DNA from: a virus
Virus record (IMG/VR): IMGVR_UViG_3300045988_117149
Strand: one strand, 5' to 3'
Length of the DNA: 64,000 nucleotides
Shown here: in pieces, positions 594 to 51,007 of the stretch
How the letters are laid out: every line of letters begins with the position of its first letter
How positions within the stretch are numbered: position 1 is the first letter of the stretch
Made by a program: the position numbers and the translations under genes
Notes under the pieces: generated by a model
Databases searched by the model: none
What the model saw: only the letters and a program-made list of their open reading frames with translations
Told to the model about the DNA's origin: nothing

Positions 594-2081
594 TTAACTG
601 TTAGTAAGGCTATGGTTAGGATGTTTCTTCCATAGCGTATCTAACAATATTACTTTTAGTTCTTGTCTCTGATAATACTGCTTCCTATGTTTACCATGCC
701 TATCTAAGTAATTGCCTGGATAGTGAAGGTCATCGAGATACACTCGAGATTTCGATTCATCGGTTCTTACCAAACGACCAAGGAACTGAATTGATTTTTC
801 CTGGCTATCCATGGATGCAGCATTAAGTAGATACCTAAGCTTAGGAAAGTTTTTACCTCGAGCAATGATTGTAGTTGATACCAAGATATCTATCTTGCCT
901 TCCCTAAAATCTTTCATAATTTGTTGTCTCCTTTTAGTGGGAGTATCAACATGCACATAGGCAATATTATAGGCATCGCCCAGTTTCTTTTTAAAGAATT
1001 TATATAGATTTTCACAGTGTGCAATATGCTTGCAAACTACAAGTGCAGGATATCTGCCATAGGATAAATTCCACTTTAACCGAGATAAAGCCATCTTCCT
1101 TGCTTTCTTATTTTCGGTAATGGTATCATCGTATATTTCCTTATAGGATATACAATCTGATTCCCAATTACCATACCAGGGTTTACCAGGTACCATCTTT
1201 ACGATTGTTTTAGTAGAATAACCTTTTCGAATTGAATCCTTAAGTTTAAACTCAGCAAGTACATTACCAAAGAAACAACGTAGGTTCATATTCTTAACTC
1301 TATCCTTAGCAAGCTTACTCATATAAATCGTACCAGATAAACCGATACGAACTCGAGTATTAAAGAGACGAGTAATTACATTCTGATATTGCTTACTACC
1401 TCCTTGGTCAGCCTCATCAATAAGTACCATATCAATCTGAGATAATTCCTTTTGATAAAATCTCATGTTACGAGAAATAGATTGAACCATACCTATGGTG
1501 AAGTTACTCCAATTTAAAACTTTGCCTTGAACGAATGTGATATTCTCTCCCGGGAGATATTGCTTGAATTCTTCTCTAGCTTGATTCAACCAGTCAGAGT
1601 CATTAGTTATTAGCAAAGTCTTTAACTGCTTCTTATAGGATAGATATAAAGACGACATGATAAGAGTTTTACCTGCATTAACCGTATAATCTAAAACACC
1701 AATCTGAAAAGGTTTACCTCCTATGGTATTACTGATTATTGCCTTGACAGCTTTCTCTTGTTCAGGTCTTAAAATATACTTACCTATCTTCGTAACAACT
1801 TTACTGACTTTAGGTAAGGGTTGTCTCATATCTACAACTTTAGGTTTAATCCCATACTCAATACATTTCTCATATATCAAAGGAAGTAAACCTATTTTAA
1901 ATTGACCAGTCTTGGTAATATAATGTATCTTACCATCCCAGTTCTGCATCCCTCTTTGCCTTGTACGTAAGTAGAAGGCATTGGGATGTCTTATTGCAAA
2001 CTCTTGGTAGAGTTTCTGTGCGAACTTAAGAGGTAAGTCCAGTTCGCACATATTCCCATTCTGAATTATAATCTTACTCAT
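594..2081 (-). CDS. superfamily-2 DEAD/DEAH-box helicase
   Basis: Walker A VNAGKT, motif II LIDEAD, motif III LSGT, and a C-terminal helicase lobe (IIARGKNF). TAATG overlap with the upstream gene. Confidence 0.8.
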   Translation of the reverse strand: MSKIIIQNGNMCELDLPLKFAQKLYQEFAIRHPNAFYLRTRQRGMQNWDGKIHYITKTGQFKIGLLPLIYEKCIEYGIKPKVVDMRQPLPKVSKVVTKIGKYILRPEQEKAVKAIISNTIGGKPFQIGVLDYTVNAGKTLIMSSLYLSYKKQLKTLLITNDSDWLNQAREEFKQYLPGENITFVQGKVLNWSNFTIGMVQSISRNMRFYQKELSQIDMVLIDEADQGGSKQYQNVITRLFNTRVRIGLSGTIYMSKLAKDRVKNMNLRCFFGNVLAEFKLKDSIRKGYSTKTIVKMVPGKPWYGNWESDCISYKEIYDDTITENKKARKMALSRLKWNLSYGRYPALVVCKHIAHCENLYKFFKKKLGDAYNIAYVHVDTPTKRRQQIMKDFREGKIDILVSTTIIARGKNFPKLRYLLNAASMDSQEKSIQFLGRLVRTDESKSRVYLDDLHYPGNYLDRHGKHRKQYYQRQELKVILLDTLWKKHPNHSLTNS

Positions 2082-2665
2082 TACTTAATGATTACCGTTA
2101 CGCCTTTAGATTTCTCTTTACCAGAAACTTCCTTTAGTAATTTTACATGATGTTCTTCATCGGCAATCAGCTTCTCAAGGAAGTAATTCACATCATCATA
2201 ATCTTTACGGTCTTCATACTGTTGGATAGCTTTCTGAATCTTTCGATAGTGAGCTATAGTTTCCATCTCTGAACTTAAAGCAATCTTCATTGCCTCTCCC
2301 CAAGTAGAACCAATCCCAATATTGGGGTTGATACTCATGGTAGAGTAATCTTCATAGGGATCTGCCTTCTGTAGAAAATCTGATATCTTATCGAGATGTC
2401 TCATTTCTACCAAACCAATACCCAACATCAGTTCTGAGATTTCATCAAACCGAGAAGATTGCTGAGTGTACATAATAATTGCACTGAGCTCAGAGAATGT
2501 AGCATTCTTCCAGATTACATAGAACAGGTTAATTATCTCATCAGGCCATGGTTCGATATCCTTAAAATCTGGATAATCCACGGATTGGTCTGAATACTTG
2601 AGGACATCTATAAAAGCATTAGCTGCATCCTCTACTCTGTTTCCGAAAAATTGTAAACCTTTCAT
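2081..2665 (-). CDS. ferritin-like (diiron-carboxylate four-helix-bundle) protein
   Basis: E / ExxH / E / ExxH pattern: SELSAIIMY, LVEMRHL, SSEMETIAHY, ADEEHHVKLL. Confidence 0.6.
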   Translation of the reverse strand: MKGLQFFGNRVEDAANAFIDVLKYSDQSVDYPDFKDIEPWPDEIINLFYVIWKNATFSELSAIIMYTQQSSRFDEISELMLGIGLVEMRHLDKISDFLQKADPYEDYSTMSINPNIGIGSTWGEAMKIALSSEMETIAHYRKIQKAIQQYEDRKDYDDVNYFLEKLIADEEHHVKLLKEVSGKEKSKGVTVIIK

Positions 2666-4475: not shown

Positions 4476-4598
4476 ACCCTCTTATAGCTTTTCTAAATTA
4501 CTTTTCGAAGTTTCTTTAAATCCTCTAAATCTAAATCATTAATAGCAATGATTTGCCAACCATTATGAGATATTTCTAAAGCTATCCCATCAGACCAT

Positions 4599-27432: not shown

Positions 27433-29274
27433 TTAAACACTAAAGTAATATTCATAGGTAATCACTGCAGCATTCTGAGTTATGTTGACTGTAAGCTCCC
27501 AACCGTCATCATCGTTTTCTGCTTGCCTTAATTTAATGGTACCTGACCTTGTTGATTCTACGGTATTCTCTGTTAAGGTTAAGGTTAACCCATAGTTTCC
27601 ATTATCACTTGATAACGTTGTAATTGCTACATTTGTAACCCAACTTGGTTTTGAGGTTACAGTTAAAGCTAATGGGTATCTTGTACTTATTTCAGAACCG
27701 TTTATTACCTTAGTCTTAAAAGAATAAGCTACATCAACTATAAAATTATTACCTCCCAAAGCTGATAATCCGGTTCTGGAAGTAGTTCTAGAACCAGTAG
27801 GGGAAGTAAATGCCAAGTAATACTTATAAGATACTGAAGCAGCACTCTGAGTAACTGTGATGGTTTTAGTAGTTGCCCCACTATAGGATGCAGTTACTGT
27901 ACAACTTCTACTTGAAGTACCCGTGTTCTCTGTAGCAGTAAGTACCGTCTTAGCTGAATTCAAACTAAATCCAGTACCACTTGCACTAACCGTAGGTGTA
28001 GCACTCTTCGAAGAACCTGCACTTGTTGACCCTGAACTCCAATGGTTGGTAGTAGGTATACTTACACTGGCATAAATATTAACACTACCTCCTGAATTAG
28101 AGATAGAGTATGAATTTGCCGATAAACTTATTACTGGTGTACCATCGGTAGTACTGGTAATTGAATTCGCTGCCTGATATACATCAAGGGTTATAGATTT
28201 CGATTTACCATTCAGAGATACTGTACAAGTAAGGGAGCCTACTCTTGTTCTAGCCTTAGATGTAGTTCCCAAAGAACTTGCACTAACGGCAGTACCATAA
28301 GAAATACTAGCACCAGATGTAATCGTACCTCCTCCCGTAGTAGAACCATTCCATCCCCAAGTCTGTGAATAACTTGGAGCTGTTGTAAATGAACTCCTTG
28401 TTCCTCCTGATGCTGGGATATCTGATACTGCTCCACCACTTACTGTGATTTCACTATAGGTTCTATAACCTGCAGATTGAGAACAACTAATGGTTAACTT
28501 CTTATTGGTTTCTGCTTGAGTTAATACTACACTACCAGACTTTGCCGAAGTAGAAGTATTATTGGCCATAGTTACCGAAGTACCAGTACCAGTAACTCCT
28601 GTATTAGCCCGGGTATAACTTAAAGAAACCTGACTACCATAAGTATGCCCATTTCTGTACTCTTGTTTGTAAGAAGTTACAGTAAATGTTTTCGTTCCTC
28701 CAGTTGCCCCAAATGACATAGATGTTGGATTCACTGAGAAAGTCTGAGTCCAACTTTGAGATGCTGCTGCCTGAGACCAACCGATAGCAAAAGTTTTACC
28801 AGAGCCCTGTTGGAGTATTACTCCATCAGTCTTGGACCTTGCAGTTAAATCTAAGTTCTCTTGAGCAACCCAACCTCCGGCATCGGACCAAGATATCCAA
28901 GAAGGTAATCCAGAAGTAGAGTAATTTACATCCTCTTTAATACCAGTAGCTACACCATCTAAGTACTTTTCCCGATTAGAGGTTCCTCCAAAGCCTTTAT
29001 CTGCATTGGTAGGAGACCCACCTAAAGCAGTAAAGTTTAGAGTAGTATTAGCAAGGGTAAAAGTATACTTATAGGTTACCTTATGAATATCTTCGAGTTT
29101 AACACCCTCGTTATTTCCATAGGAACTAGCATTGGAGATTTCCAAGCCAACGTAATTTTCCCCCGTTCCTGTAGGGGTGAGTGCTAACAATTCAGCCTTG
29201 GTAGGGCAGTCGTTACCTGTCTTACCAAGGCCTACTTTAGTTTTGACAGCACTCCATGTTGCTATCTCTCCCAT
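27433..29274 (-). CDS. Ser/Thr-rich protein built of BACON/Ig-like repeats (fibre- or capsid-associated)
   Basis: At least four repeats ending in R/K-S-G/C-(S/T)-(I/V)...(I/L)T(V/I)xQ, e.g. TRSGTIKLRQ...NITQ and SRSCTVTASY...ITVTQ. Confidence 0.55.
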   Translation of the reverse strand: MGEIATWSAVKTKVGLGKTGNDCPTKAELLALTPTGTGENYVGLEISNASSYGNNEGVKLEDIHKVTYKYTFTLANTTLNFTALGGSPTNADKGFGGTSNREKYLDGVATGIKEDVNYSTSGLPSWISWSDAGGWVAQENLDLTARSKTDGVILQQGSGKTFAIGWSQAAASQSWTQTFSVNPTSMSFGATGGTKTFTVTSYKQEYRNGHTYGSQVSLSYTRANTGVTGTGTSVTMANNTSTSAKSGSVVLTQAETNKKLTISCSQSAGYRTYSEITVSGGAVSDIPASGGTRSSFTTAPSYSQTWGWNGSTTGGGTITSGASISYGTAVSASSLGTTSKARTRVGSLTCTVSLNGKSKSITLDVYQAANSITSTTDGTPVISLSANSYSISNSGGSVNIYASVSIPTTNHWSSGSTSAGSSKSATPTVSASGTGFSLNSAKTVLTATENTGTSSRSCTVTASYSGATTKTITVTQSAASVSYKYYLAFTSPTGSRTTSRTGLSALGGNNFIVDVAYSFKTKVINGSEISTRYPLALTVTSKPSWVTNVAITTLSSDNGNYGLTLTLTENTVESTRSGTIKLRQAENDDDGWELTVNITQNAAVITYEYYFSV

Positions 29275-29275
29275 A

Positions 29276-32200
29276 TTAATCTACATCTTTAAGATTTCTG
29301 AGTTCTGAGATTTCAGCCTTCAAAGCCTTAATCTCATCGTAAAGAAGTTTGATACCTTCGATTGCCAGAGTAGACATCTTATGGTACTTAACTTGTTTTA
29401 CCAATACGTATTCTTCACCGTCGATAACAACTGTTTCGAATTCCTCAGGATTAGGAACTGAATCCTTAGTTCTTGGGTCTTCTTCTACGTAGTTATTAAA
29501 CCCAGCTGCTTCCAAACCTTGTGCAATGGTACCTTCATCTTCCTTACCATCCATGATAAAGGATTCTGTAGGTATACTGCAAATTTGTTCCAGAGTATGG
29601 GTTAACGGTTTGATGTTAGATTTCAATCTTTCATCGGAAGACTCTTTCCAGAAACCAGAAGGAGCAGTAGTCTTAGCAAATACTACCTGGTCGGTAGTTG
29701 CCAATCCCAACTGGGTTCTAGTTACTGAATGAGGATTATCCTTTCTACCTGCATGGTTACTGATAGAAGTCTGAGCAGCAGTACCAGCAGCCTTAGCATC
29801 GGCAATGGCAGAAGCTTGAGCGGTAGATACTGGTTTGTTAGCATCCGAGGTATTATCGGCATTACCTAAACCTACCTGAGCCTTGGTTACTCCATGAGGA
29901 TTGCTCTTATTGGCAATATGCTGATTTACCTTGGTTTCCAATGCCGTTAAATCGGTATCAGTATTACCTACTGCTTCATCGATGTAAGTTTTCAATTCTG
30001 TTCTAAGAGAATTGATAGCATTGGTTCTGTTAGTAATTTCATTTGCCAACCCAGTAACTGTGTTATCCAGGTTCTTCTTGTCGGCTGCAGTCATTACACC
30101 GGCTACGGTTTGTGTAGCTGCAGGAATATCGAAAGTATGTTGAGTTTCGTTTACCTGGAAACTACCATCCTCTTTCCTTTCTGTCCACCAATAACCTATG
30201 GTTAATTTAGTAGCAGAAGTAATCAGATTAATTAAATTACCTGAGTTCTCCAAATCTCTACCAAGGATATGGTCAGGGAAACTGTTAATCTTAGCCGTAA
30301 TTGCATTATCGGCATTAGTACGATTGGTAGTTTCGGTAGCTATCTGATTAGGTAGGGTAGTGTCAAGCTTAACCTTATCAGCAGCAGTCATTACACCAGC
30401 CTGAGAAGCTGTAGCAGCAGTAATCTGAGAATAATGATCTTGAATATTACCATTACCAAACCAACATTTGAAATTCAGTCGTACTGTACTTGCTTGGTAA
30501 GTGTTATTATTAAAATGAGATGCACCATTAGCTTTCAGAGAAGCTACCTGGTCTTCCAATTCTTTACCTCTACCACCATCGAAAGCAGTACCTGTAATTT
30601 GTCCAAGGATAAGTACCTGAGCATCTGCCCTTGCAAAGATAGTACCTGTCCAACGGAATTGGTAAGGAGGTTCACCATTGGTAATATTGATATAAATCTT
30701 ACCTGCCTCTCCAGTGATAGCATTCTGATGAGCAGCATCCGAATACAATTTGATATTCGTAAGTTCTCCCGTAGCAGATTTATCATAAGTAGCATATACA
30801 TCAATGATGTCATCTACGTATGATGGCAATTGGTTAGCCGGTACCGTACCATTAGCATCAAGAGAAGCAAAGCCATTAGCTTTACCTTTCGTAGCAACAA
30901 AGGCATCATGCTTAGCTTCTAGAGCATCAATATTTGCCTGCAATTTATTATCAAGTGCGGTATCTGCTGCGGTTCTATCGGATATCTCTTTGTCGATTCT
31001 TGCACCCAATGCAGTATCAGCATCCGTACGGGCTTTTGCTTCATCGGCTACTGCTTTAGTGAACTTAGTATCAAGGGCTGTATCGGCATCTTTACGGTCT
31101 TGGATTTCCTTGTTTAGAGCAGCTGTAGAGGAATTAGTCAAAGCCTCGATTGCATCTTTACGGTCTTGAACCTCTTGAGCAATAGCATCTGGTAATGTCT
31201 CATCAAGATTTACCTTATCTGCTGCAGTCATTACACCCGCAAGAGTTTCAGTAGCAGCGGGTATATAAGTAGTCTTAAAATCTCCAGCTTCACTGGTATA
31301 AATACCACTCTCTTTTTTAGAAGAGAACTTATGAGTTAAAGTAACATGGCTACTCTGTTGAACTACCTCAACTGGTTTATCACCAGATAGGATGATGACC
31401 TTATCTGGTATAGAATCGAACAACTTCTTATCAGCTGCTGATTGTACACCAGCCTTTTCGGGAGTAGATGAAGGCAGAGTAATGGGATTCTGAACTGTAG
31501 TACCATCTTCAACATTAGTCTTAGTAGCAGCAATTCCTACAGTAGTTTCATTAGGAGTAACTGCACCCAAAGCAAAGTTAGCGGTATTGATTCTGTCCAA
31601 TTCTACTTTATCTTTCGCAGTCATAGTACCAGCCTTATCTGCTGATACTACCGGTAAATCGAAAGTATCCGTAGTGTCATCATTCAAGCCATTATCCTTA
31701 GTTACTGTAACTGTAACCTTATCAGCATCAGAAGCTGCTGAGATTTCGGTAATAGCATTGGGGTCTAAGCCATCAAGTTTAACCTTGTCTGCAGCAGACA
31801 TAACTCCGGCAAGAGTTTGAGTAACTGGCAAAAGGTTCTTAGTTGCCTCTACCTCATCACCATACTGATTATTCTCTTGGTCTTTAGTAGAAGTTTTTAC
31901 CTTGAATGTAAGTTGAGTAGCGTTACGAGTTACAGCACTTACATCTGTAACCATGGTACCAGGCAAAGCATCAGAAGTACCTTCCTCAGCTACCAATCTT
32001 TCCTCATGGTCATTGGTAATTGCAGTGAATTTATTATCCAATGCAGTATCGGCATCGGTTCTGTCTTGGATTTCTTTATCGATACGAGCATTGATTTTCT
32101 TATCTTCTGCAATACGAGCAGCTTCCTCTGCATCGATATTATCCTGGAGAACTTTATCGGCAGCAATTCTTTCTTCTCTTTCTGTATTGAGGTCAGAAGT

Positions 32201-35200
32201 ATTCTGGTCGATTTTTGCCTCCAATCGGATATCTTCGGATTTACGAGTAGCAATTTCACTTTCCAACAAATCCTTGATGGCAGTGTAATTACCATTAACG
32301 TTATCTTGAATACCCTGGATTAGTTCCAAGTTACGTTGGATATTTGCCGAATTCTGATTTACCAAAGCATTGGTAGCATTCAGAGAAGTTAACAACTCTG
32401 TACGAGTTTCACTAACGAAAGTTCTCAAATCATTTACCGTTGTGGTAAGAGTAGTACTCAGGTTAGTGAAAGATTGTTGCAGGTTATCGTCTCCTTGTTC
32501 ACGCAAGTTCTTTTCAGCAGTAAGCTTATTTTCTAATTCAGTAAGCTTAGCAGTCATAGTTGCAGCGAAATTTGGGTCATCCCCTAATGCCTTAGCAATC
32601 TCTGCTAGAGTATCAAGTACTTCAGGTGCAGAACCAATAATCTTTTGGATAGCTGCCTCTACTTGTTCTGCATTCTGGAAATCAGAATCATTGAGTAATT
32701 CTGATACCTTCGTAATGTAGTTAGCATGTTCTTCGATGCCATCAAGTTTAGCATACAGAAGGTCGGTAAAATCATTTGCAGAAAGACCCTTGCCATCTAC
32801 TTTGTCTACCTTCTTATTATCCATTGCCTGGTCTGCAGCAGTACGGTCTGCCTTTTCCTGAGCAATAGCATTATTAATAAGGGTATCTTGATTAGCACGT
32901 TCTGTGGCCTCCTTATCGATATTGGTTTGCAACAGAGTATCACCTGCCAAACGTTCGTTCTTCTCAGTAAGGATATCCTGGTTGATAGCAGCCATGTCAT
33001 CCTTGTGATTCTGAAGATTGGTATCAATCTTTGCCTCAAGAGAAGTTTCCTTGGCAATTGCCCGGTCTTTCTCTGTATTGATTGCAGTGGTATTATTCTT
33101 AACCTGCTCTTTGAGGTCATTCATAGCAGTCGTATTGCCTGCCTCTAGAGTATCAATACGAGCTCCCAATGCAGTATCAGCCGCAGCTCTGTCCGTTTTT
33201 TCTTGGTCAATCTTGGTATTCAATTTACCTACCTCTGATTCCAAAGCTTGTTTGGTATTATCCAACTTAGCAGTGAATTCTGTAGACAAGGCTTTATCTG
33301 CAGCAGTACGGTCTGCTACTTCTTTATCGAGATTTACCTGAAGAACTTGGTCTGCAGCTGTTCTCTCAACACGTTCAGTGTTAAGGTCGATATTTACATT
33401 ATCAATACGAGAACTCAAACCACTGTCAGCATTAGTACGGTCAACGATTTCCTCGTTAATCATATCCTTAACCTCCTTGTAGTTATCACCTACTGTCTTG
33501 GTTAAGTTAGTGATGGCTTCTGAGTTTCTTTCGATATCGTGCTGATTAGTAGCGATAGCAGTAGTATTCGCATTAACCTGTTCCGTAAGTTCATTACGAA
33601 GAGTGTTAATAGAATCCTGAATGCTCAAAGCCAATTCTGAAACACGTTTGTTTACGTTATTCAAACTTACAGTGTAAGCCTCATCAGCAGTCTTTCTGTC
33701 GGCAATTTCCTTATCCAAGCTTGCCTGGATTGCGGCATCTGCATCTTTACGGTCTTGGATTTCTTTGTTCAAGTTATCCTTAACTACATTAAGAGCAGTA
33801 TCACCAGCAGTGGATTTATTGTCGATATATTCTTTCAGTTTAGTTTCAAGAGCAGTATCTGCAGCAATTCGGTCTGCCTTTTCTGTAGCTACCTCTGCAC
33901 TGTTTGCAGCATCACCAGCAATACGGTCTTCCTTCTCTTGGTTAATCTCCTCGGTTAAGGCAGCTAACTTCTTGGTGATAGTTGTTGCAAAGTTGGGGTC
34001 ATTACCAAGAGCATCGGCAATTTCCTTCAAGGTATCAAGTACCTCGGGAGCAGAACCTACAATTTTCTGAATAGCAGCATTAACTTGCTCTTCATTTTGG
34101 AAGTCCATATCATTAATCAACTCAGAGAGCTTGGTAATGTAATTGGCTTTCTCTTCAATACCGTCAAGCTTAGCTTTGAGAATATCCGTAAAGTCATTCT
34201 TAGTCAATGAATAACCTTCACGTTTATCTACCTTCTTATTATCAAGAGCAGTATCTGCATCTTTACGAGCCTGAGTTTCAGTAGCAATAGCTTCTAACAG
34301 TTGAGTCTTATCTGCTTGACCTTGGAGTTTTACATCCTCAATCTTATGATCCAAAACCAAATCCTGAGCAGCACGAGCAGTAGCTTCGGAATCAATATTA
34401 TTCTGAAGTACCTGGTCTGCAGAGGTACGAGCTTGAGCCTCTTGGTCAATTTTACCTTGCAAAGCATTATCTGCATTAGTACGGTCAGCTACCTCTTTAG
34501 AAATTTCATTATGAAGAACTTGGTCCTCAGAATGACGGTCTACTGCTTCCTGGTCAATCTTACTCTGCAATGCTTGAGTATCTGATTGGCGATTAGTGAT
34601 TTCCTCATTAATCTTAGAATCCAGAATAGTATCTGCATTCGTACGATTAGATACCTCTTCAGCAATCTTGGCTTCAAGAGCAGCCTTGTCATTGATGTGA
34701 AGAGTTTTGAGTTCATTTACACTTTCCTTGATTTCGTTATCGGCAGCGATACGTTCGTCCTTTTCTTGTTGGATGAGGCTCTTAAGTTCATCCTTAATCT
34801 CATCGCTCTTATCGTTTACCTTATCATTGAGATCCTTAATGTCTTCGGCATTTTTATCTGCCTTAGCTTCTACCCGAGCAATATCAGCTTTCAAGTCTGC
34901 CTTAACAGTATCAATTTTGTTGATTAACTGTTCAGCAGCATATTTCAAGTTATCATCTACCGCAGCAATAGCAGCACCCAATGCAGCTTCTGCTTCCTTA
35001 GCACGACTTACTTCCTCGCTAAGAGAAGTACGAAGCTCGGTAAGTTTATTTGTGATAGTTGTTGCAAAGTTGGGGTCATTGCCCAAGGCTTCTGCCAACT
35101 CCTTAAGAGTATCAAGAGCATCATCAGCACCATCAACCAGGTCACTGATTGCCTTCTTAACATCCTCTTCAGTTTGGAACTTGAGATCATTTTCAAGCTC

Positions 35201-35446
35201 TGAAACTTTAGTGATGTAGTTTGCTTTCTCCTCGATTCCATCCAACTTAGCCTTAAGCTCGTCGGTAAAATCGTTTTTAGATAAGCCATAACCTTCTTTC
35301 TTATCTACCTTATCCTTGATAGAAAGTACGAAGGCCCAGAACTCATTAATAGTTCCGGCAAAGCCAGCACGAACAAAGTCATCATAGTAACCTTGTAACA
35401 ACCGCTGGTCAATTTCTTCGCAGGTATAATACTTACTTACATACAT
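29276..35446 (-). CDS. giant tail fibre (2056 aa) with triplicated module, coiled coils, GVM(S/T)AADK repeats and a C-terminal S74 intramolecular chaperone
   Basis: LDTLKE(L/I)A(E/D/K)ALG(N/D)DPNFA occurs three times. At least five (T/Q)xAGVM(S/T)AADK(V/K)xLD repeats. SDERLKSNIKPL lies near the C-terminus. Confidence 0.85.
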   Translation of the reverse strand: MYVSKYYTCEEIDQRLLQGYYDDFVRAGFAGTINEFWAFVLSIKDKVDKKEGYGLSKNDFTDELKAKLDGIEEKANYITKVSELENDLKFQTEEDVKKAISDLVDGADDALDTLKELAEALGNDPNFATTITNKLTELRTSLSEEVSRAKEAEAALGAAIAAVDDNLKYAAEQLINKIDTVKADLKADIARVEAKADKNAEDIKDLNDKVNDKSDEIKDELKSLIQQEKDERIAADNEIKESVNELKTLHINDKAALEAKIAEEVSNRTNADTILDSKINEEITNRQSDTQALQSKIDQEAVDRHSEDQVLHNEISKEVADRTNADNALQGKIDQEAQARTSADQVLQNNIDSEATARAAQDLVLDHKIEDVKLQGQADKTQLLEAIATETQARKDADTALDNKKVDKREGYSLTKNDFTDILKAKLDGIEEKANYITKLSELINDMDFQNEEQVNAAIQKIVGSAPEVLDTLKEIADALGNDPNFATTITKKLAALTEEINQEKEDRIAGDAANSAEVATEKADRIAADTALETKLKEYIDNKSTAGDTALNVVKDNLNKEIQDRKDADAAIQASLDKEIADRKTADEAYTVSLNNVNKRVSELALSIQDSINTLRNELTEQVNANTTAIATNQHDIERNSEAITNLTKTVGDNYKEVKDMINEEIVDRTNADSGLSSRIDNVNIDLNTERVERTAADQVLQVNLDKEVADRTAADKALSTEFTAKLDNTKQALESEVGKLNTKIDQEKTDRAAADTALGARIDTLEAGNTTAMNDLKEQVKNNTTAINTEKDRAIAKETSLEAKIDTNLQNHKDDMAAINQDILTEKNERLAGDTLLQTNIDKEATERANQDTLINNAIAQEKADRTAADQAMDNKKVDKVDGKGLSANDFTDLLYAKLDGIEEHANYITKVSELLNDSDFQNAEQVEAAIQKIIGSAPEVLDTLAEIAKALGDDPNFAATMTAKLTELENKLTAEKNLREQGDDNLQQSFTNLSTTLTTTVNDLRTFVSETRTELLTSLNATNALVNQNSANIQRNLELIQGIQDNVNGNYTAIKDLLESEIATRKSEDIRLEAKIDQNTSDLNTEREERIAADKVLQDNIDAEEAARIAEDKKINARIDKEIQDRTDADTALDNKFTAITNDHEERLVAEEGTSDALPGTMVTDVSAVTRNATQLTFKVKTSTKDQENNQYGDEVEATKNLLPVTQTLAGVMSAADKVKLDGLDPNAITEISAASDADKVTVTVTKDNGLNDDTTDTFDLPVVSADKAGTMTAKDKVELDRINTANFALGAVTPNETTVGIAATKTNVEDGTTVQNPITLPSSTPEKAGVQSAADKKLFDSIPDKVIILSGDKPVEVVQQSSHVTLTHKFSSKKESGIYTSEAGDFKTTYIPAATETLAGVMTAADKVNLDETLPDAIAQEVQDRKDAIEALTNSSTAALNKEIQDRKDADTALDTKFTKAVADEAKARTDADTALGARIDKEISDRTAADTALDNKLQANIDALEAKHDAFVATKGKANGFASLDANGTVPANQLPSYVDDIIDVYATYDKSATGELTNIKLYSDAAHQNAITGEAGKIYINITNGEPPYQFRWTGTIFARADAQVLILGQITGTAFDGGRGKELEDQVASLKANGASHFNNNTYQASTVRLNFKCWFGNGNIQDHYSQITAATASQAGVMTAADKVKLDTTLPNQIATETTNRTNADNAITAKINSFPDHILGRDLENSGNLINLITSATKLTIGYWWTERKEDGSFQVNETQHTFDIPAATQTVAGVMTAADKKNLDNTVTGLANEITNRTNAINSLRTELKTYIDEAVGNTDTDLTALETKVNQHIANKSNPHGVTKAQVGLGNADNTSDANKPVSTAQASAIADAKAAGTAAQTSISNHAGRKDNPHSVTRTQLGLATTDQVVFAKTTAPSGFWKESSDERLKSNIKPLTHTLEQICSIPTESFIMDGKEDEGTIAQGLEAAGFNNYVEEDPRTKDSVPNPEEFETVVIDGEEYVLVKQVKYHKMSTLAIEGIKLLYDEIKALKAEISELRNLKDVD
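32530..32810 (-). repeat. fibre module copy 3 (VDKVDGKGLSANDFT...DPNFAATMTAKL)
   Basis: More diverged at the DNA level; collinear at the protein level. Confidence 0.7.
33955..34232 (-). repeat. fibre module copy 2 (VDKREGYSLTKNDFT...DPNFATTITKKL)
   Basis: The 29-nt core gtgatagttgttgcaaagttggggtcatt at 33975-34003 is identical to 35052-35080. Confidence 0.8.
35035..35310 (-). repeat. fibre module copy 1 (about 92 aa: VDKKEGYGLSKNDFT...DPNFATTITNKL)
   Basis: Shares a 29-nt identical core (35052-35080) with copy 2. Confidence 0.8.
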
Positions 35447-47940: not shown

Positions 47941-48128
47941 CTACAGTAATATTGACAATTTACCTGGTATGCTTACCGTTCACAGTATTCTTTGTAAAAG
48001 CAACATTAGAATACTTGCCTCAATCACATAAGGTGCATTCACTGGTATTATTCTTATCGGTCTGGTTTTTGCTACCTTTATTTCCGATTTACCTATTATT
48101 GAAATTCATAAAACATAAACTGGTATGA
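47937..48128 (+). CDS. small two-helix membrane protein
   Basis: 63 aa, almost entirely hydrophobic; ATGA overlaps on both sides. Confidence 0.5.
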   Translation: MTTVILTIYLVCLPFTVFFVKATLEYLPQSHKVHSLVLFLSVWFLLPLFPIYLLLKFIKHKLV

Positions 48129-48424
48129 GATACTTTTTTGATAGAGATGGTAATTATGCTGGGTCATCAATGCAAGGGTGGGAGGTAATACTCCTACTCT
48201 GCCTCCCAGTTCTTATTGTATTATTCTTTGTATTCCTTCCCTTAATTATATTGCATAAATATGCCTCTAGAGAAGAAGATAAGAAATTCGAAGAAGAACA
48301 TCCGCAAATATTAAAAGTAGATTCTTATATTACCGGCTGGTACCCTTGGCATAGATATTCCCTTGCATATACCATCTCCCTTGTATGTTGGGTAATTGCA
48401 ATGCTAATGGCTTTGACTAATTAA
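48125..48424 (+). CDS. small membrane protein (two helices)
   Basis: WEVILLLCLPVLIVLFFVFLPLIIL and SLVCWVIAMLMAL. Its stop overlaps the convergent stop of ORF 48417-49175. Confidence 0.5.
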   Translation: MRYFFDRDGNYAGSSMQGWEVILLLCLPVLIVLFFVFLPLIILHKYASREEDKKFEEEHPQILKVDSYITGWYPWHRYSLAYTISLVCWVIAMLMALTN

Positions 48425-49175
48425 TCTTGATTCTAAGCATAACCCTTTTAACATATCCGTTTATCTTATTGCCCAGTATAAGTTCTATAAGTATACCTCC
48501 GGAGAAATCTGAAGGAGAAAGGTTTCCTTTTTTAACGGTAATAGAACCATGACTATAGGAACCAGAGGGAGTCCAATCGGATGGGTCTACTGTATCTATC
48601 TTATAATTAATGGCTTGAGAATATTCTCTATCACAACCATAAAATAAACCTTGAGCATCATAGAGACTCATATTAAAATAGAAATCAGAATAAGGTACCA
48701 ATTGACTACCTTTTAAGTAGAGCTCGAATATAGCAGTGGGTTCTGTATATGAACCATTATCAGACCAAGGGACCTTAGTTACAGGTATAAGTAAATATTC
48801 ATCTTGAGATGCAGGTAAGGTACCTGAAGTTACATATTGACCATTATAGTTTAAGATATAGGGTAAGTCTTTATATGTAGTTAGAGAGTTCTTATCATAC
48901 CTACCCCATATTTCTACATACATTGGGATATCTACTGCCTTCTGAGTGATTGTGATAGTGATAACTTTACCAGTAGTGGCTTGGGTAAGAGTGATAGTGG
49001 CTGCTCTACTTGAAGAACCTGAGTTTGCAGAAATGTCTACTTCTAAATTGTAAGATACTGCATCATTTGATGTCTTCTTAGTAAAAACCCAAGCATTACT
49101 TGATGAGATTGGTGGGTCATATGTGATACTTGTAGTAAAGTCAATAATATCTGACTTAGATACTTTACCATTCAC
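48417..49175 (-). CDS. BACON/Ig-like protein, paralog C. The true gene is probably 48417-49300, but its ATG is out of frame at the G9 tract.
   Basis: The track start is only a GTG. The frame is open upstream through the tract, and the ATG at 49300 joins it if the tract is 10 or 7 nt long. Motif SSRAATITLTQ...ITITITQ. Confidence 0.6.
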   Translation of the reverse strand: MNGKVSKSDIIDFTTSITYDPPISSSNAWVFTKKTSNDAVSYNLEVDISANSGSSSRAATITLTQATTGKVITITITQKAVDIPMYVEIWGRYDKNSLTTYKDLPYILNYNGQYVTSGTLPASQDEYLLIPVTKVPWSDNGSYTEPTAIFELYLKGSQLVPYSDFYFNMSLYDAQGLFYGCDREYSQAINYKIDTVDPSDWTPSGSYSHGSITVKKGNLSPSDFSGGILIELILGNKINGYVKRVMLRIKIN

Positions 49176-49276
49176 TACAGTATCTCTATATGAGTGAATG
49201 GTAAAGGTCTTTTTGGTTGCATCTGAAGGTACTGTTATTTCCTGAGATGCGGCTCTGGTACTAAATACCAGATTTA

Positions 49277-49285
49277 GGGGGGGGG
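49277..49285. repeat. G9 homopolymer (C9 on the coding strand)
   Basis: Counted directly: gatttaGGGGGGGGGattta. Confidence 0.95.
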
Positions 49286-49309
49286 ATTTAAATTTTCCAT
49301 ATCTTTCTT

Positions 49310-49933
49310 TTAATATTGATACATGTCAATTCTGTTACTAGCTATAATGTCCCCATAACTAAATCGTATATAAAACCATCCAAAATAAGTTCCGGAACTT
49401 CCTCCCTTAGTAGAGATTACCATAGAATCAGTACCTTGAGTTTGGTCTGAAGCTATGGAGAAACCACCATTAAAGGGACTTTGTTGAGATATCTCAAAGG
49501 TATCAGTAGTTCCCATTCCTTCAGTTTCGATAGTACCATCAGAATAGATATCTGATTTGAAAACCTCGAAAATCATTCTGGATATAGTTGAATCTACATG
49601 GGTTTCATAAGTTTCTGTGTTGGCATCATAGATATAGTTTCCATTATCCGGATTACCTACACAGAAATATTTAGTTGAGATTATATATCTCTGAGGAACC
49701 TGAGAGTAATTAAGGGTAATCCTCTTACCGGATGCAGGTTGGAGAAGTACTATCTTACCACTTCGAGTGGAAGAGGTATTATTAGCTGGTACTGTAATGG
49801 TTAATTGGGAAGGAACCTCAGAAGTCTTAATAGTACTACCTGAGGGTAAATTCTGAGATTCCACTTTCCAATTAGCAGCATATTCTTGAGCTAAGTTACC
49901 ATTGATGTACTTATAGGTAATAGATTCAACCAT
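49310..49933 (-). CDS. BACON/Ig-like protein, paralog B. The true gene is probably 49310-50024, but its ATG is out of frame at the C7 tract.
   Basis: The frame is open upstream to 50005. The ATG at 50024 joins it if the tract is 6 or 9 nt long. Motif SSTRSGKIVLLQ...ITLNYSQ. Confidence 0.6.
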   Translation of the reverse strand: MVESITYKYINGNLAQEYAANWKVESQNLPSGSTIKTSEVPSQLTITVPANNTSSTRSGKIVLLQPASGKRITLNYSQVPQRYIISTKYFCVGNPDNGNYIYDANTETYETHVDSTISRMIFEVFKSDIYSDGTIETEGMGTTDTFEISQQSPFNGGFSIASDQTQGTDSMVISTKGGSSGTYFGWFYIRFSYGDIIASNRIDMYQY

Positions 49934-49986
49934 TACTACGGTAGTTTCTCCTGCCCCTGCAAAACTTAAATCAAGGGTGGTGACCT

Positions 49987-49993
49987 CCCCCCC
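49987..49993. repeat. C7 homopolymer (G7 on the coding strand)
   Basis: Counted directly: gacctCCCCCCCtacgg. Confidence 0.95.
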
Positions 49994-50035
49994 TACGGAA
50001 TGATACTACATTTTTCTTTTCCATATCCTTGAAAT

Positions 50036-51007
50036 TTATAAAGTGATTATTTGGTCTGATGAAGGCAATAGGAAAGTAGACCTTAATTGCCAAGTTTGAT
50101 TAGTAAATCTATAAGCTGATATACGATCACCTGGGTAAGCCATTTCAGTACTACCATTTTGTAAATTTACTCTTACACCCTCAGATTTTTTATACTTATG
50201 GACTGAGGTATCATCTAATACAGCGAAATTAAAATAAGCTGTACCAGTACTACCAGTTTGAGGTGTTTGCCCCTCTTTGAAGAAAGCTCCTGAAAAAGTG
50301 TTCAGAGGCCAATTGATTGTAAGGGTGATATCCTGTTCCGCAGCTTTCTGCCATATAGTCACTTCTCTACGTTGGTCACCACAGGTTACTAAGAGTGTTC
50401 CGGACCTTTCTGAAGAACCCGAGTTTGCTGCAGTTGCTTTAACTATAATTTGGTACCAATTAGGTGCACCTGCCATAATAGACCCATCTTTAACTGTAAC
50501 CTTAGTTGCCCAAGAAGGAGTTACTCCTACGGATGGTTGTTTGGCCATTACCTCTCCATCACTTCGAGTCATATAAGATTGAACCATAATCGTAGTAGTA
50601 TTACCTATATTAGCTCCTATGGTAGCACTTACATTCAATACACCTAAGAAGTAGGTATAAGTGAAGTTGGGTTCTTGACTTATAGGGAAAGATATAGTTT
50701 GACCAGATTCTCTCTGCTTAAATACAAGAGTATGGGTTCTGGCAGAGGAACCTGTATTCTCTTGCAGGGTGGTAAAAGTTACTTTGCAATCATTGCCCTC
50801 AAAAGCATATTTCACGCTTACCCAAGAGGGGATGCTGGATTCCATATCCCAATCTACATTAGTCTTCTGCCCAGTACTCTTGCCATTAATGTACTTGGTC
50901 TTATAGGAGTAGATATAGGTAGTCTTGGTATCCCCAACATTCTGACCTATCTCAAAGACCGATGCCCTGGGTGCAGCATTGGCTACTCTAAAGTTAAATT
51001 CGTTCAT
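50036..51007 (-). CDS. BACON/Ig-like protein, paralog A (two domains, intact)
   Basis: SSARTHTLVFKQ...ISFPISQ and SSERSGTLLVTC...EVTIWQ motifs. Uninterrupted ATG-to-stop ORF. Confidence 0.65.
   Translation of the reverse strand: MNEFNFRVANAAPRASVFEIGQNVGDTKTTYIYSYKTKYINGKSTGQKTNVDWDMESSIPSWVSVKYAFEGNDCKVTFTTLQENTGSSARTHTLVFKQRESGQTISFPISQEPNFTYTYFLGVLNVSATIGANIGNTTTIMVQSYMTRSDGEVMAKQPSVGVTPSWATKVTVKDGSIMAGAPNWYQIIVKATAANSGSSERSGTLLVTCGDQRREVTIWQKAAEQDITLTINWPLNTFSGAFFKEGQTPQTGSTGTAYFNFAVLDDTSVHKYKKSEGVRVNLQNGSTEMAYPGDRISAYRFTNQTWQLRSTFLLPSSDQIITL

Follow-up and report, generated by a model that had tools for sequence, protein, structure and literature searches.

Two homopolymer tracts hold adjacent BACON-domain genes out of frame

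The 64,000-nucleotide (nt) stretch of viral DNA analyzed here (IMG/VR record IMGVR_UViG_3300045988_117149; referred to as the window) contains a minus-strand cluster of three consecutive genes, which we call A, B and C. Gene A is intact, and genes B and C each carry a homopolymeric G or C run shortly after the start codon that leaves the gene out of frame. We consider it likely that B and C are two independently switching homopolymer contingency loci, in which slipped-strand mispairing turns accessory BACON proteins of a Flandersviridae-like gut myovirus on and off. Gene B begins at an ATG at position 50024, 11 nt past the TAA of gene A, and in the window sequence it encodes MEKKNVVSFRRGGGHHP before reaching a stop at 49971 (ATG GAA AAG AAA AAT GTA GTA TCA TTC CGT AGG GGG GGA GGT CAC CAC CCT TGA). 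The frame of the open reading frame (ORF) at 49310-49933 stays open upstream to 50005, and a tract of G6 or G9 fuses both frames into a protein of 237 or 238 amino acids (aa), as judged from the repaired translation. Gene C begins at an ATG at 49300, 9 nt past the stop of B, and reads MENLNPPP followed by a stop through a C9 run at 49277-49285; here, C7 or C10 fuses the leader to the ORF at 48417-49175, with a repaired translation of 293 or 294 aa. The tracts cover codons 11-13 in B and 6-8 in C, and the off frames of these two adjacent genes terminate 2-5 codons past the tract. A change of plus or minus one nucleotide toggles the frame, with G6, G9 or G12 representing the ON state of B and C7 or C10 that of C (Table 1). 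Gene callers give B as a 207-aa ORF from 49933 and C as a 252-aa ORF starting at a GTG.

Table 1. Features of the A/B/C cluster, in coordinates of the window
Feature	Position	Strand	Description and basis
Gene A	50036..51007	-	323-aa BACON-domain protein, intact, first of the three-gene cluster, without homopolymer tract (ORF list, Pfam)
Gene B, start codon and leader MEKKNVVSFR	49994..50024	-	Leader identical in all relatives (sequence)
Gene B, putative hypermutable tract	49987..49993	-	G7 on the coding strand (C7 on the plus strand), OFF; in frame if G6, G9 or G12
Gene B, OFF-state mini-ORF	49971..50024	-	17 codons, MEKKNVVSFRRGGGHHP and stop (sequence, ORF list)
Gene B, body	49310..49986	-	BACON-like beta-sandwich and C-terminal beta-rich domain; open in the G6/G9 frame
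Gene C, start codon and leader MENLN	49286..49300	-	Sequence
Gene C, putative hypermutable tract	49277..49285	-	C9 on the coding strand (G9 on the plus strand), OFF; in frame if C7 or C10
Gene C, body	48417..49276	-	BACON domain and a C-terminal domain unlike that of B (repaired translation, Pfam, homologue model)

Such runs are exceptional in this DNA. Indeed, C7 (49987-49993) and G9 (49277-49285), both given for the plus strand, are the only G/C runs of at least six nucleotides in the window, which has a GC content of 37.6%. From base composition, 0.6 runs of at least seven cytosines and about 0.01 runs of at least nine guanines are expected, and a rough estimate, which assumes about 100 genes in 64 kb, puts the chance that both lie within the first 45 nt of adjacent genes at about 1e-4. 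GGG accounts for 9.8% of the glycine codons and CCC for 16% of the proline codons of the window, and the codon pairs GGG-GGG and CCC-CCC occur zero times in its 15,824 other codons. No other G/C run of at least six was found in the approximately 40 kb that span the rest of the genome in relatives, except for the B tract in contig L052. An earlier, sequence-only reading of the locus had traced B on the minus strand from ATG to TGA, with the downstream ORF open to 50005; had placed the two longest G/C runs at the same relative position within the first 14 codons of adjacent genes; and had described both as being OFF and in need of different corrections. All of this is borne out (G7 to G6 or G9 for B, C9 to C10 or C7 for C), and its further claim that the pattern is not a coincidence is supported by the uniqueness and placement of the tracts and by their variation in relatives.

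Tract length varies among relatives

Approximately 35 distinct contigs from gut and sewage samples were collected from IMG/VR, ENA and Logan through pattern searches, protein-guided locus retrieval and exact-protein look-ups. Across these relatives, the position of each tract was constant while its length varied. For B, we counted G7 12 times, G8 six times, G9 eight times, G10 six times and G11 twice, plus the interrupted versions GGGGGAGGG and GGGGGGAGGGG. The C tract was present as C6 (once), C7 (three times), C8 (eight), C9 (11), C10 (six) and C11 (once), plus the interrupted versions CCCTCCCCCC and CCCCCTCCC. Protein databases furthermore contain the B forms RRGEVTT, RRGGEVTT and RRGGGEVTT, which would correspond to G6, G9 and G12, and the C forms PPL and PPPL, corresponding to C7 and C10. 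All four combinations of ON and OFF states of B and C were found, which indicates that the two tracts behave independently.

Length differences were also frequent between near-identical phages. Among pairs separated by 1-4 substitutions per ~1600 nt of flanking sequence, the B tract differed in 8 out of 12 and the C tract in 9 out of 12 cases (tally of the listed pairs). For instance, a single substitution separates L027 from L032, the B tracts of which measure 7 and 10 and the C tracts 9 and 8, respectively. Three locus pairs with zero flank differences had identical tracts. Nearby A/T runs of six nucleotides were invariant in the same contigs (25-32 of 25-32). The longest A/T homopolymer of the window, a T9 at positions 2-10, is still T9 in the two relatives that cover this site. 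We infer that the length variation arises by replication slippage within populations, and that it would be reversible.

Some alleles deviate from a pure tract. In L022 (4554-4580), an extra A in the A-run of the leader returns a C9 tract to frame, and the interrupted in-frame tract CCCTCCCCCC of L012 (4634-4660) looks 'locked ON'. The idea that C alleles of the 'TAACTTTGG' group are always out of frame was rejected, as the group includes proteins from in-frame C7 and C10 alleles (P0227 with 324 members, and P0224-6). With respect to protein clusters, the 207-aa form of B heads cluster P0012 with 991 members and the 252-aa form of C heads P0210 with 426 members, while in-frame representatives head clusters of 228 members for B and of 957 plus 324 members for C; these sizes are rough guides, and those B clusters whose members were listed are mixed.

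According to the proposed mechanism, slipped-strand mispairing during phage DNA replication would add or remove single G:C pairs at a rate far above that of base substitution. One length class in three would keep the ATG in frame, and the other two would lead to a stop within a few codons. The run itself would encode a flexible glycine or proline stretch in a disordered leader ahead of the BACON domain, so that in-frame length changes would be tolerated. A phage population would consequently be a mixture of A+B+C+, A+B+C-, A+B-C+ and A+B-C- genotypes, with A being constitutive and the window representing A+B-C-.

B and C are predicted to be adhesin-like proteins

The Pfam BACON family (PF13004) matched A with an E-value of 6.7e-11 and 42.5 bits (gathering cut-off 25), and C likewise scored above the gathering threshold (E 1.3e-5, 25.6 bits). 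Precomputed PF13004 matches are present in some B homologues. A and B share 31% identity over 90 aa (E 1e-6), and B and C share 40% identity over 35 aa (E 9e-5). The three proteins are related solely through their N-terminal BACON domain, and the C-terminal domains differ; the term 'paralogs' used in the sequence-only reading therefore suits the former part and does not extend to the latter. Across homologues, the C-terminal modules that follow the BACON module are of at least three or four kinds. A 613-aa ORF in the structural block (27433-29274, minus strand) shows a weak C-terminal BACON match (E 3.2e-4) and would constitute at least a fourth BACON-like module in the genome; it is without a homopolymer tract.

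The AlphaFold2 (AF2) model of the C homologue P0204 shows an N-terminal beta-sandwich with a predicted local distance difference test score (pLDDT) of about 88, preceded by disordered residues 1-16 (pLDDT 32 for residues 1-10), and the prolines encoded by the tract lie within this disordered leader. Foldseek matched the model to 2mqc (template modelling score, TM, 0.63), 2mw1 (TM 0.58) and crAssphage orf00074 (E 2.8e-8), as well as to many phage proteins annotated as 'Binding domain, N-terminal'; the C-terminal domain of C had no confident structural match in Foldseek. The model of the B homologue P0003 was poor (pLDDT 62), and its Foldseek matches were generic Ig/cadherin-like. The PHROGs database returned no family for B and solely families of unknown function for A and C, PDB sequence searches gave no significant match, and peptides of A, B and C were not matched in the supplements of PMC13370021. 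The fold of B and C is BACON/Ig-like, which is typical of phage surface adhesins, with no functional match in PHROGs. Both proteins presumably sit on the virion surface, where they would bind glycans as adhesins or assist in receptor binding. A conserved short isoform of B, re-initiated internally at Met31 (49933), was rejected, as relatives have I, G, R or K in place of this methionine.

The surface polysaccharides (capsules) of Bacteroides are phase-variable. This, together with the BACON fold and the report that BACON or Ig-like proteins of Flandersviridae-like myoviruses confer epithelial adherence (PMC13370021, 2026), suggests that switching may serve as bet-hedging of the adhesion or receptor-binding properties of the virion.

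Selection on the gene bodies and alternative explanations

Despite their disrupted frames, the bodies of B and C have stayed intact, and purifying selection is seen even when two OFF alleles are compared. The B body of the window (G7, OFF) compared with that of L015 (G8, OFF) gave a synonymous divergence (dS) of 0.40 and a nonsynonymous divergence (dN) of 0.041, that is, a dN/dS ratio of 0.10. For the C body, the ratio was 0.11 between L015 and L017, both of which are OFF, and 0.26-0.30 across the two main allele groups. Overall, the gene bodies showed dN/dS values of 0.10-0.29 with dS of up to 0.9, and pseudogene decay was rejected on this basis. Constant tract lengths combined with a loss of purifying selection in relatives had been named in the sequence-only reading as an outcome that would contradict it; the opposite was found, with variable tract lengths and dN/dS of 0.10-0.29. 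The tract of B was moreover retained when its flanks changed (CGTA-Gn-AGGTCACC and CGTA-Gn-AGAGATCACC) and is recognizable as GTAGGA-G9-CAGGCC in P0024 and as AGTAA-G9-AGATCACC in P0054, B alleles of 59% and 40% identity, respectively. A minority of alleles have tract-less leaders, for example MEKELIPINFNL and the A-type RVANAAPRAS.

Several observations weigh against B and C being contingency loci for virion adhesins. First, the fraction of ON alleles is about the random one third (9/25 for B and 7/21 for C in a script count, the latter becoming 9/21 once L010 and L021 are reclassified as in frame at the tract) and thus gives no direct sign of selection on the frame. Second, B is wholly deleted in L006, L042, L044 and L052, and L017/L018 carry, at about position 4560, the interrupted out-of-frame C tract CCCCCTCCC ahead of an intact body of 277 codons; the genes are therefore dispensable, at least temporarily. 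Third, within-population heterogeneity and reversibility are deduced from consensus sequences of different samples, and some contigs, with coverages of 1-6x, may carry homopolymer errors. Fourth, RNA polymerase may slip on runs of 9-11, which would make the ON and OFF states less distinct. Lastly, regarding function, the Pfam BACON match of B alone stays below the gathering threshold (E 4.4e-4, 20.6 bits), and the C-terminal domains of B and C have no recognizable relatives in PHROGs, PDB sequence searches or Foldseek.

Some of these points would also fit neutral mutational hotspots, meaning that the runs were born by chance or drift in dispensable accessory genes headed for loss, without any adaptive switching. 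We regard this as unlikely. The deletion of B in several relatives, the abundance of chimeras, the about random ON fraction and the occurrence of interrupted OFF variants are compatible with it, but dN/dS values of 0.10-0.29 over dS of up to 0.9 are not what such decay would leave behind. In addition, alleles that share 40-60% identity and differ in their flanking codons carry the tract at unchanged codon positions, and two different genes have such a tract; the tracts are the sole two long G/C runs in an AT-rich genome of ~87 kb that is without GGG-GGG or CCC-CCC pairs; and interrupting substitutions would be expected to erase the runs, yet most alleles are pure.

Recoding, in which reiterative transcription by RNA polymerase or P-site slippage of the ribosome beside an early stop codon restores the frame and the length variation in the DNA is largely neutral, is in our judgment improbable. 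B and C would in that case be produced to some extent at any tract length. It would account for an ON fraction near the random one third despite strong purifying selection, including that between two OFF alleles, and for the intact 277-codon body behind the interrupted C tract of L017/L018; moreover, the C9 run is directly followed by TAA, a context prone to P-site slippage. However, both out-of-frame classes are populated for both genes (G7/G10 versus G8/G11 and C9 versus C8/C11) and the in-frame class is common too, so that recoding in a single direction could not restore them all. Among the relatives, we did not see the conserved arrangement, out of frame and always shifted in one direction, that characterizes programmed frameshifting or transcriptional slippage; programmed sites are also normally of conserved length, and no stimulatory element was identified here. 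G/C runs are, furthermore, classic substrates of DNA slippage, whereas most documented cases of efficient transcriptional slippage involve A/T runs.

It is highly improbable that short-read assemblers mis-called tracts which in reality have a constant, in-frame length. Homopolymers of 9-11 are error-prone and low-coverage contigs are included, but a range of 6-12 is too wide for consensus error, identical strains assembled separately show equal lengths (L008/L019, L017/L018 and L048/window), another strain is G9/C11 in all three samples at about 44x (L034-36), OFF states are present at 120-125x coverage (L040, L046 and L052), the nearby A/T runs of six stay constant, and real sequence changes are seen in the interrupted tracts and in the L022 leader with its compensating extra A.

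Recombination at the locus

Besides variable tracts, the locus is a recombination hotspot, at which we found fusions of the B leader or the A leader to the C body, of the A N-terminus to B, B/C chimeras and deletions of the whole of B. Chimeric proteins include P0001, P0002 and P0009 (A-B), P0282 (A-C), P0019 (B-C) and P0023 (A BACON and B C-terminus). They join the genes at short common motifs, such as GGATATGGAA, which occurs in A and again at the start of B (window 50840-50850 and 50020-50030). The chimeric genes indicate that modules are shuffled by recombination in addition to tract switching. In L006 (IMGVR_UViG_3300045988_120779, about 1593-1680, minus strand) and L052 (17098-17160), B is gone and its leader and G tract are fused to the body of C, as is also the case for the proteins P0235, P0237, P0238 and P0276. 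One such fusion, from a 125x assembly, reads ...CGTA G9 AGGTCACCACCCCC TAAATCTGG. The hybrid gene is still governed by the G tract, being OFF at G9 and ON at G10.

The polyG tract of B and the polyC tract of C lie on the same strand and are inverted repeats of each other; the two could pair in a polycistronic RNA or in single-stranded DNA. In L042 (ena:ERZ27261167:k119_37931, about 2103-2150, minus strand), the first 15 nt of the B leader are separated from the C body by a 37-nt exact reverse complement of 'G9 AGGTCACCTCCCTTGATTTAAATC', which abuts the C tract. An inversion between the two runs, followed by deletion at the palindrome GATTTAAATC, would be expected to leave such a footprint.

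A broader picture, which we put forward tentatively and consider possible rather than probable, is that in a prevalent group of gut phages two independent tracts, one polyG and one polyC, head tandem BACON adhesin genes, so that each burst would release a combinatorial mix of virion surfaces. This mix might hedge against host capsule variants, or between mucosal or epithelial retention and free diffusion. The runs and leaders would at the same time be recombination joints at which cassettes are deleted, fused or inverted, and the whole would form a combined locus of simple sequence repeats (SSRs) and recombination.

Relation to known systems

Intragenic polyG/C phase variation is textbook knowledge for Campylobacter, Neisseria (pilC and others), Haemophilus and Helicobacter and is part of Moxon's concept of contingency loci. 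B and C resemble these bacterial loci in having a 5' SSR, a three-state frame logic, early stops in the off frames and selected, intact genes, as well as in the combinatorial diversity that independent loci generate and in targeting what are presumably surface or glycan-interaction proteins. They differ in that the replicon is a lytic-type phage, such that switching would occur within a burst and not across cell generations, and in that there are two loci per genome. Other phage diversifiers are diversity-generating retroelements (BPP-1 Mtd; 'Quimbyviridae') and invertible tail-fibre segments (Mu Gin, P1 Cin), which likewise diversify surface or binding proteins stochastically within a phage population. 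Unlike those, the B/C locus has neither a reverse transcriptase with a template repeat nor an invertase with an inverted-repeat cassette, and its switch would be of the ON/OFF type instead of diversifying a sequence or alternating C-termini; L042 carries the putative inversion footprint described above. T4 Hoc, in the bacteriophage adherence to mucus (BAM) model, is a comparison system with respect to adhesins.

The genus Campylobacter is known for phase-variable surface glycans, and the capsules of Bacteroides are phase-variable too. Hypermutable polyG tracts have been described in Campylobacter jejuni phages of the genus Fletchervirus (Sorensen et al. 2021, Cell Rep 35:109214; cited in PMC12823448 and PMC10877375). 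The Fletchervirus tracts resemble those of B and C in being G/C runs of varying length inside a phage coding gene, and their variation reportedly leads to phenotypically different subpopulations. Our case differs in phage family, host phylum (presumably Bacteroidota) and gene class, in that variation is known here from consensus sequences, and in its arrangement, with two adjacent BACON genes carrying one polyG and one polyC on the same strand, both within the first 14 codons. In T2 and T4, contingency loci have been described as SSRs that mutate reversibly by polymerase slippage, with a proposed role in bet-hedging (Gomez, Barrick and Waters 2025, preprint, PMC12633550). These are mostly A runs of 6-9 at more than 100 sites in all gene classes of an AT-rich genome, with frequencies of about 1e-4 to 1e-3 per site (PMC12633550), in contrast to the two exceptional G/C runs of B and C, the position of which is conserved across the family and which are polymorphic at the consensus level between natural populations.

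BACON/Ig-like 'modular adhesins' have been described for crAss-like and Flandersviridae-like gut phages (de Jonge 2019, PMC6949934; PMC13370021). They share with A, B and C an N-terminal BACON beta-sandwich with interchangeable C-terminal modules, extensive domain shuffling and an occurrence in abundant phages of human-gut Bacteroidota. Term searches found no mention of phase variation, indels or truncation in PMC13370021, and full-text literature searches found no report of tract switching for gut or Bacteroidota phages, for Flandersviridae or for phages with BACON genes. Switching of this type has been described in bacteria and a few phages, and its proposed occurrence in BACON genes of a gut phage would be new.

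If the proposed switching is true, phage contingency loci extend from Campylobacter and T-even phages to uncultivated phages of Bacteroidota. Should two adhesins indeed be stochastically switched, mucus retention or host range would become properties of the population instead of fixed traits. Where an allele is OFF, gene callers list a protein of 207 or 252 aa that lacks the N-terminus, which is a systematic annotation artefact for this phage group. The interest of the system lies in the prevalence of the phage, the adhesin-type targets and its testability with existing deep metagenomes.

The phage and its relatives

The window encodes a tail sheath, a tape-measure protein, a major capsid protein, a protease, a portal, TerL and an endolysin, as well as baseplate J, DnaB, Toprim and helicase proteins. 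Relatives are contigs of 85-88 kb from human gut and sewage (genome size ~87 kb), and they additionally encode PolA, gp32 and a RecA-like protein (L049/L050), and ThyA and a dUTPase. The A/B/C cluster adjoins the lysis genes and lies outside the tail module. No close relative turned up when the locus and 24 kb of the structural block were compared by megablast with 50,697 phage records, and the closest isolate matches of TerL were Flavobacterium phages at 35%. The phage resembles the candidate family 'Flandersviridae' (Benler et al. 2021, PMC8008677) in size (about 85-91 kb for the family), human-gut habitat, contractile tail, the presence of BACON genes and a gene order in which a contractile-tail block is followed by a DnaB/primase/PolA replication module. 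Its host presumably belongs to the phylum Bacteroidota.

A 99-aa membrane-like protein (48125-48424, plus strand) is encoded convergently with gene C, and an identical protein is found in 4,658 indexed blocks of public assemblies, 654 of which have contigs of 50-200 kb. The lineage is extremely widespread in gut and sewage metagenomes, and relatives of this phage group have been reported to be among the most prevalent human-gut phages (PMC13370021). Pfam gave no match for the neighboring small genes. A scan for sigma-70 promoters and terminators gave counts below the shuffled expectation, with models that do not cover Bacteroidota promoters. In the structural region, a 2,056-aa ORF (29276-35446, minus strand) lies between the head and tail genes. 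Finally, a 194-aa ORF at 2081-2665 (minus strand) has an orthologue in L049 (9417-10001), and weak Rubrerythrin/Ferritin Pfam matches were obtained for the orthologue in relatives, in line with the oxidative-stress and iron-sequestering proteins reported for phages of gut Bacteroidota (PMC8008677).

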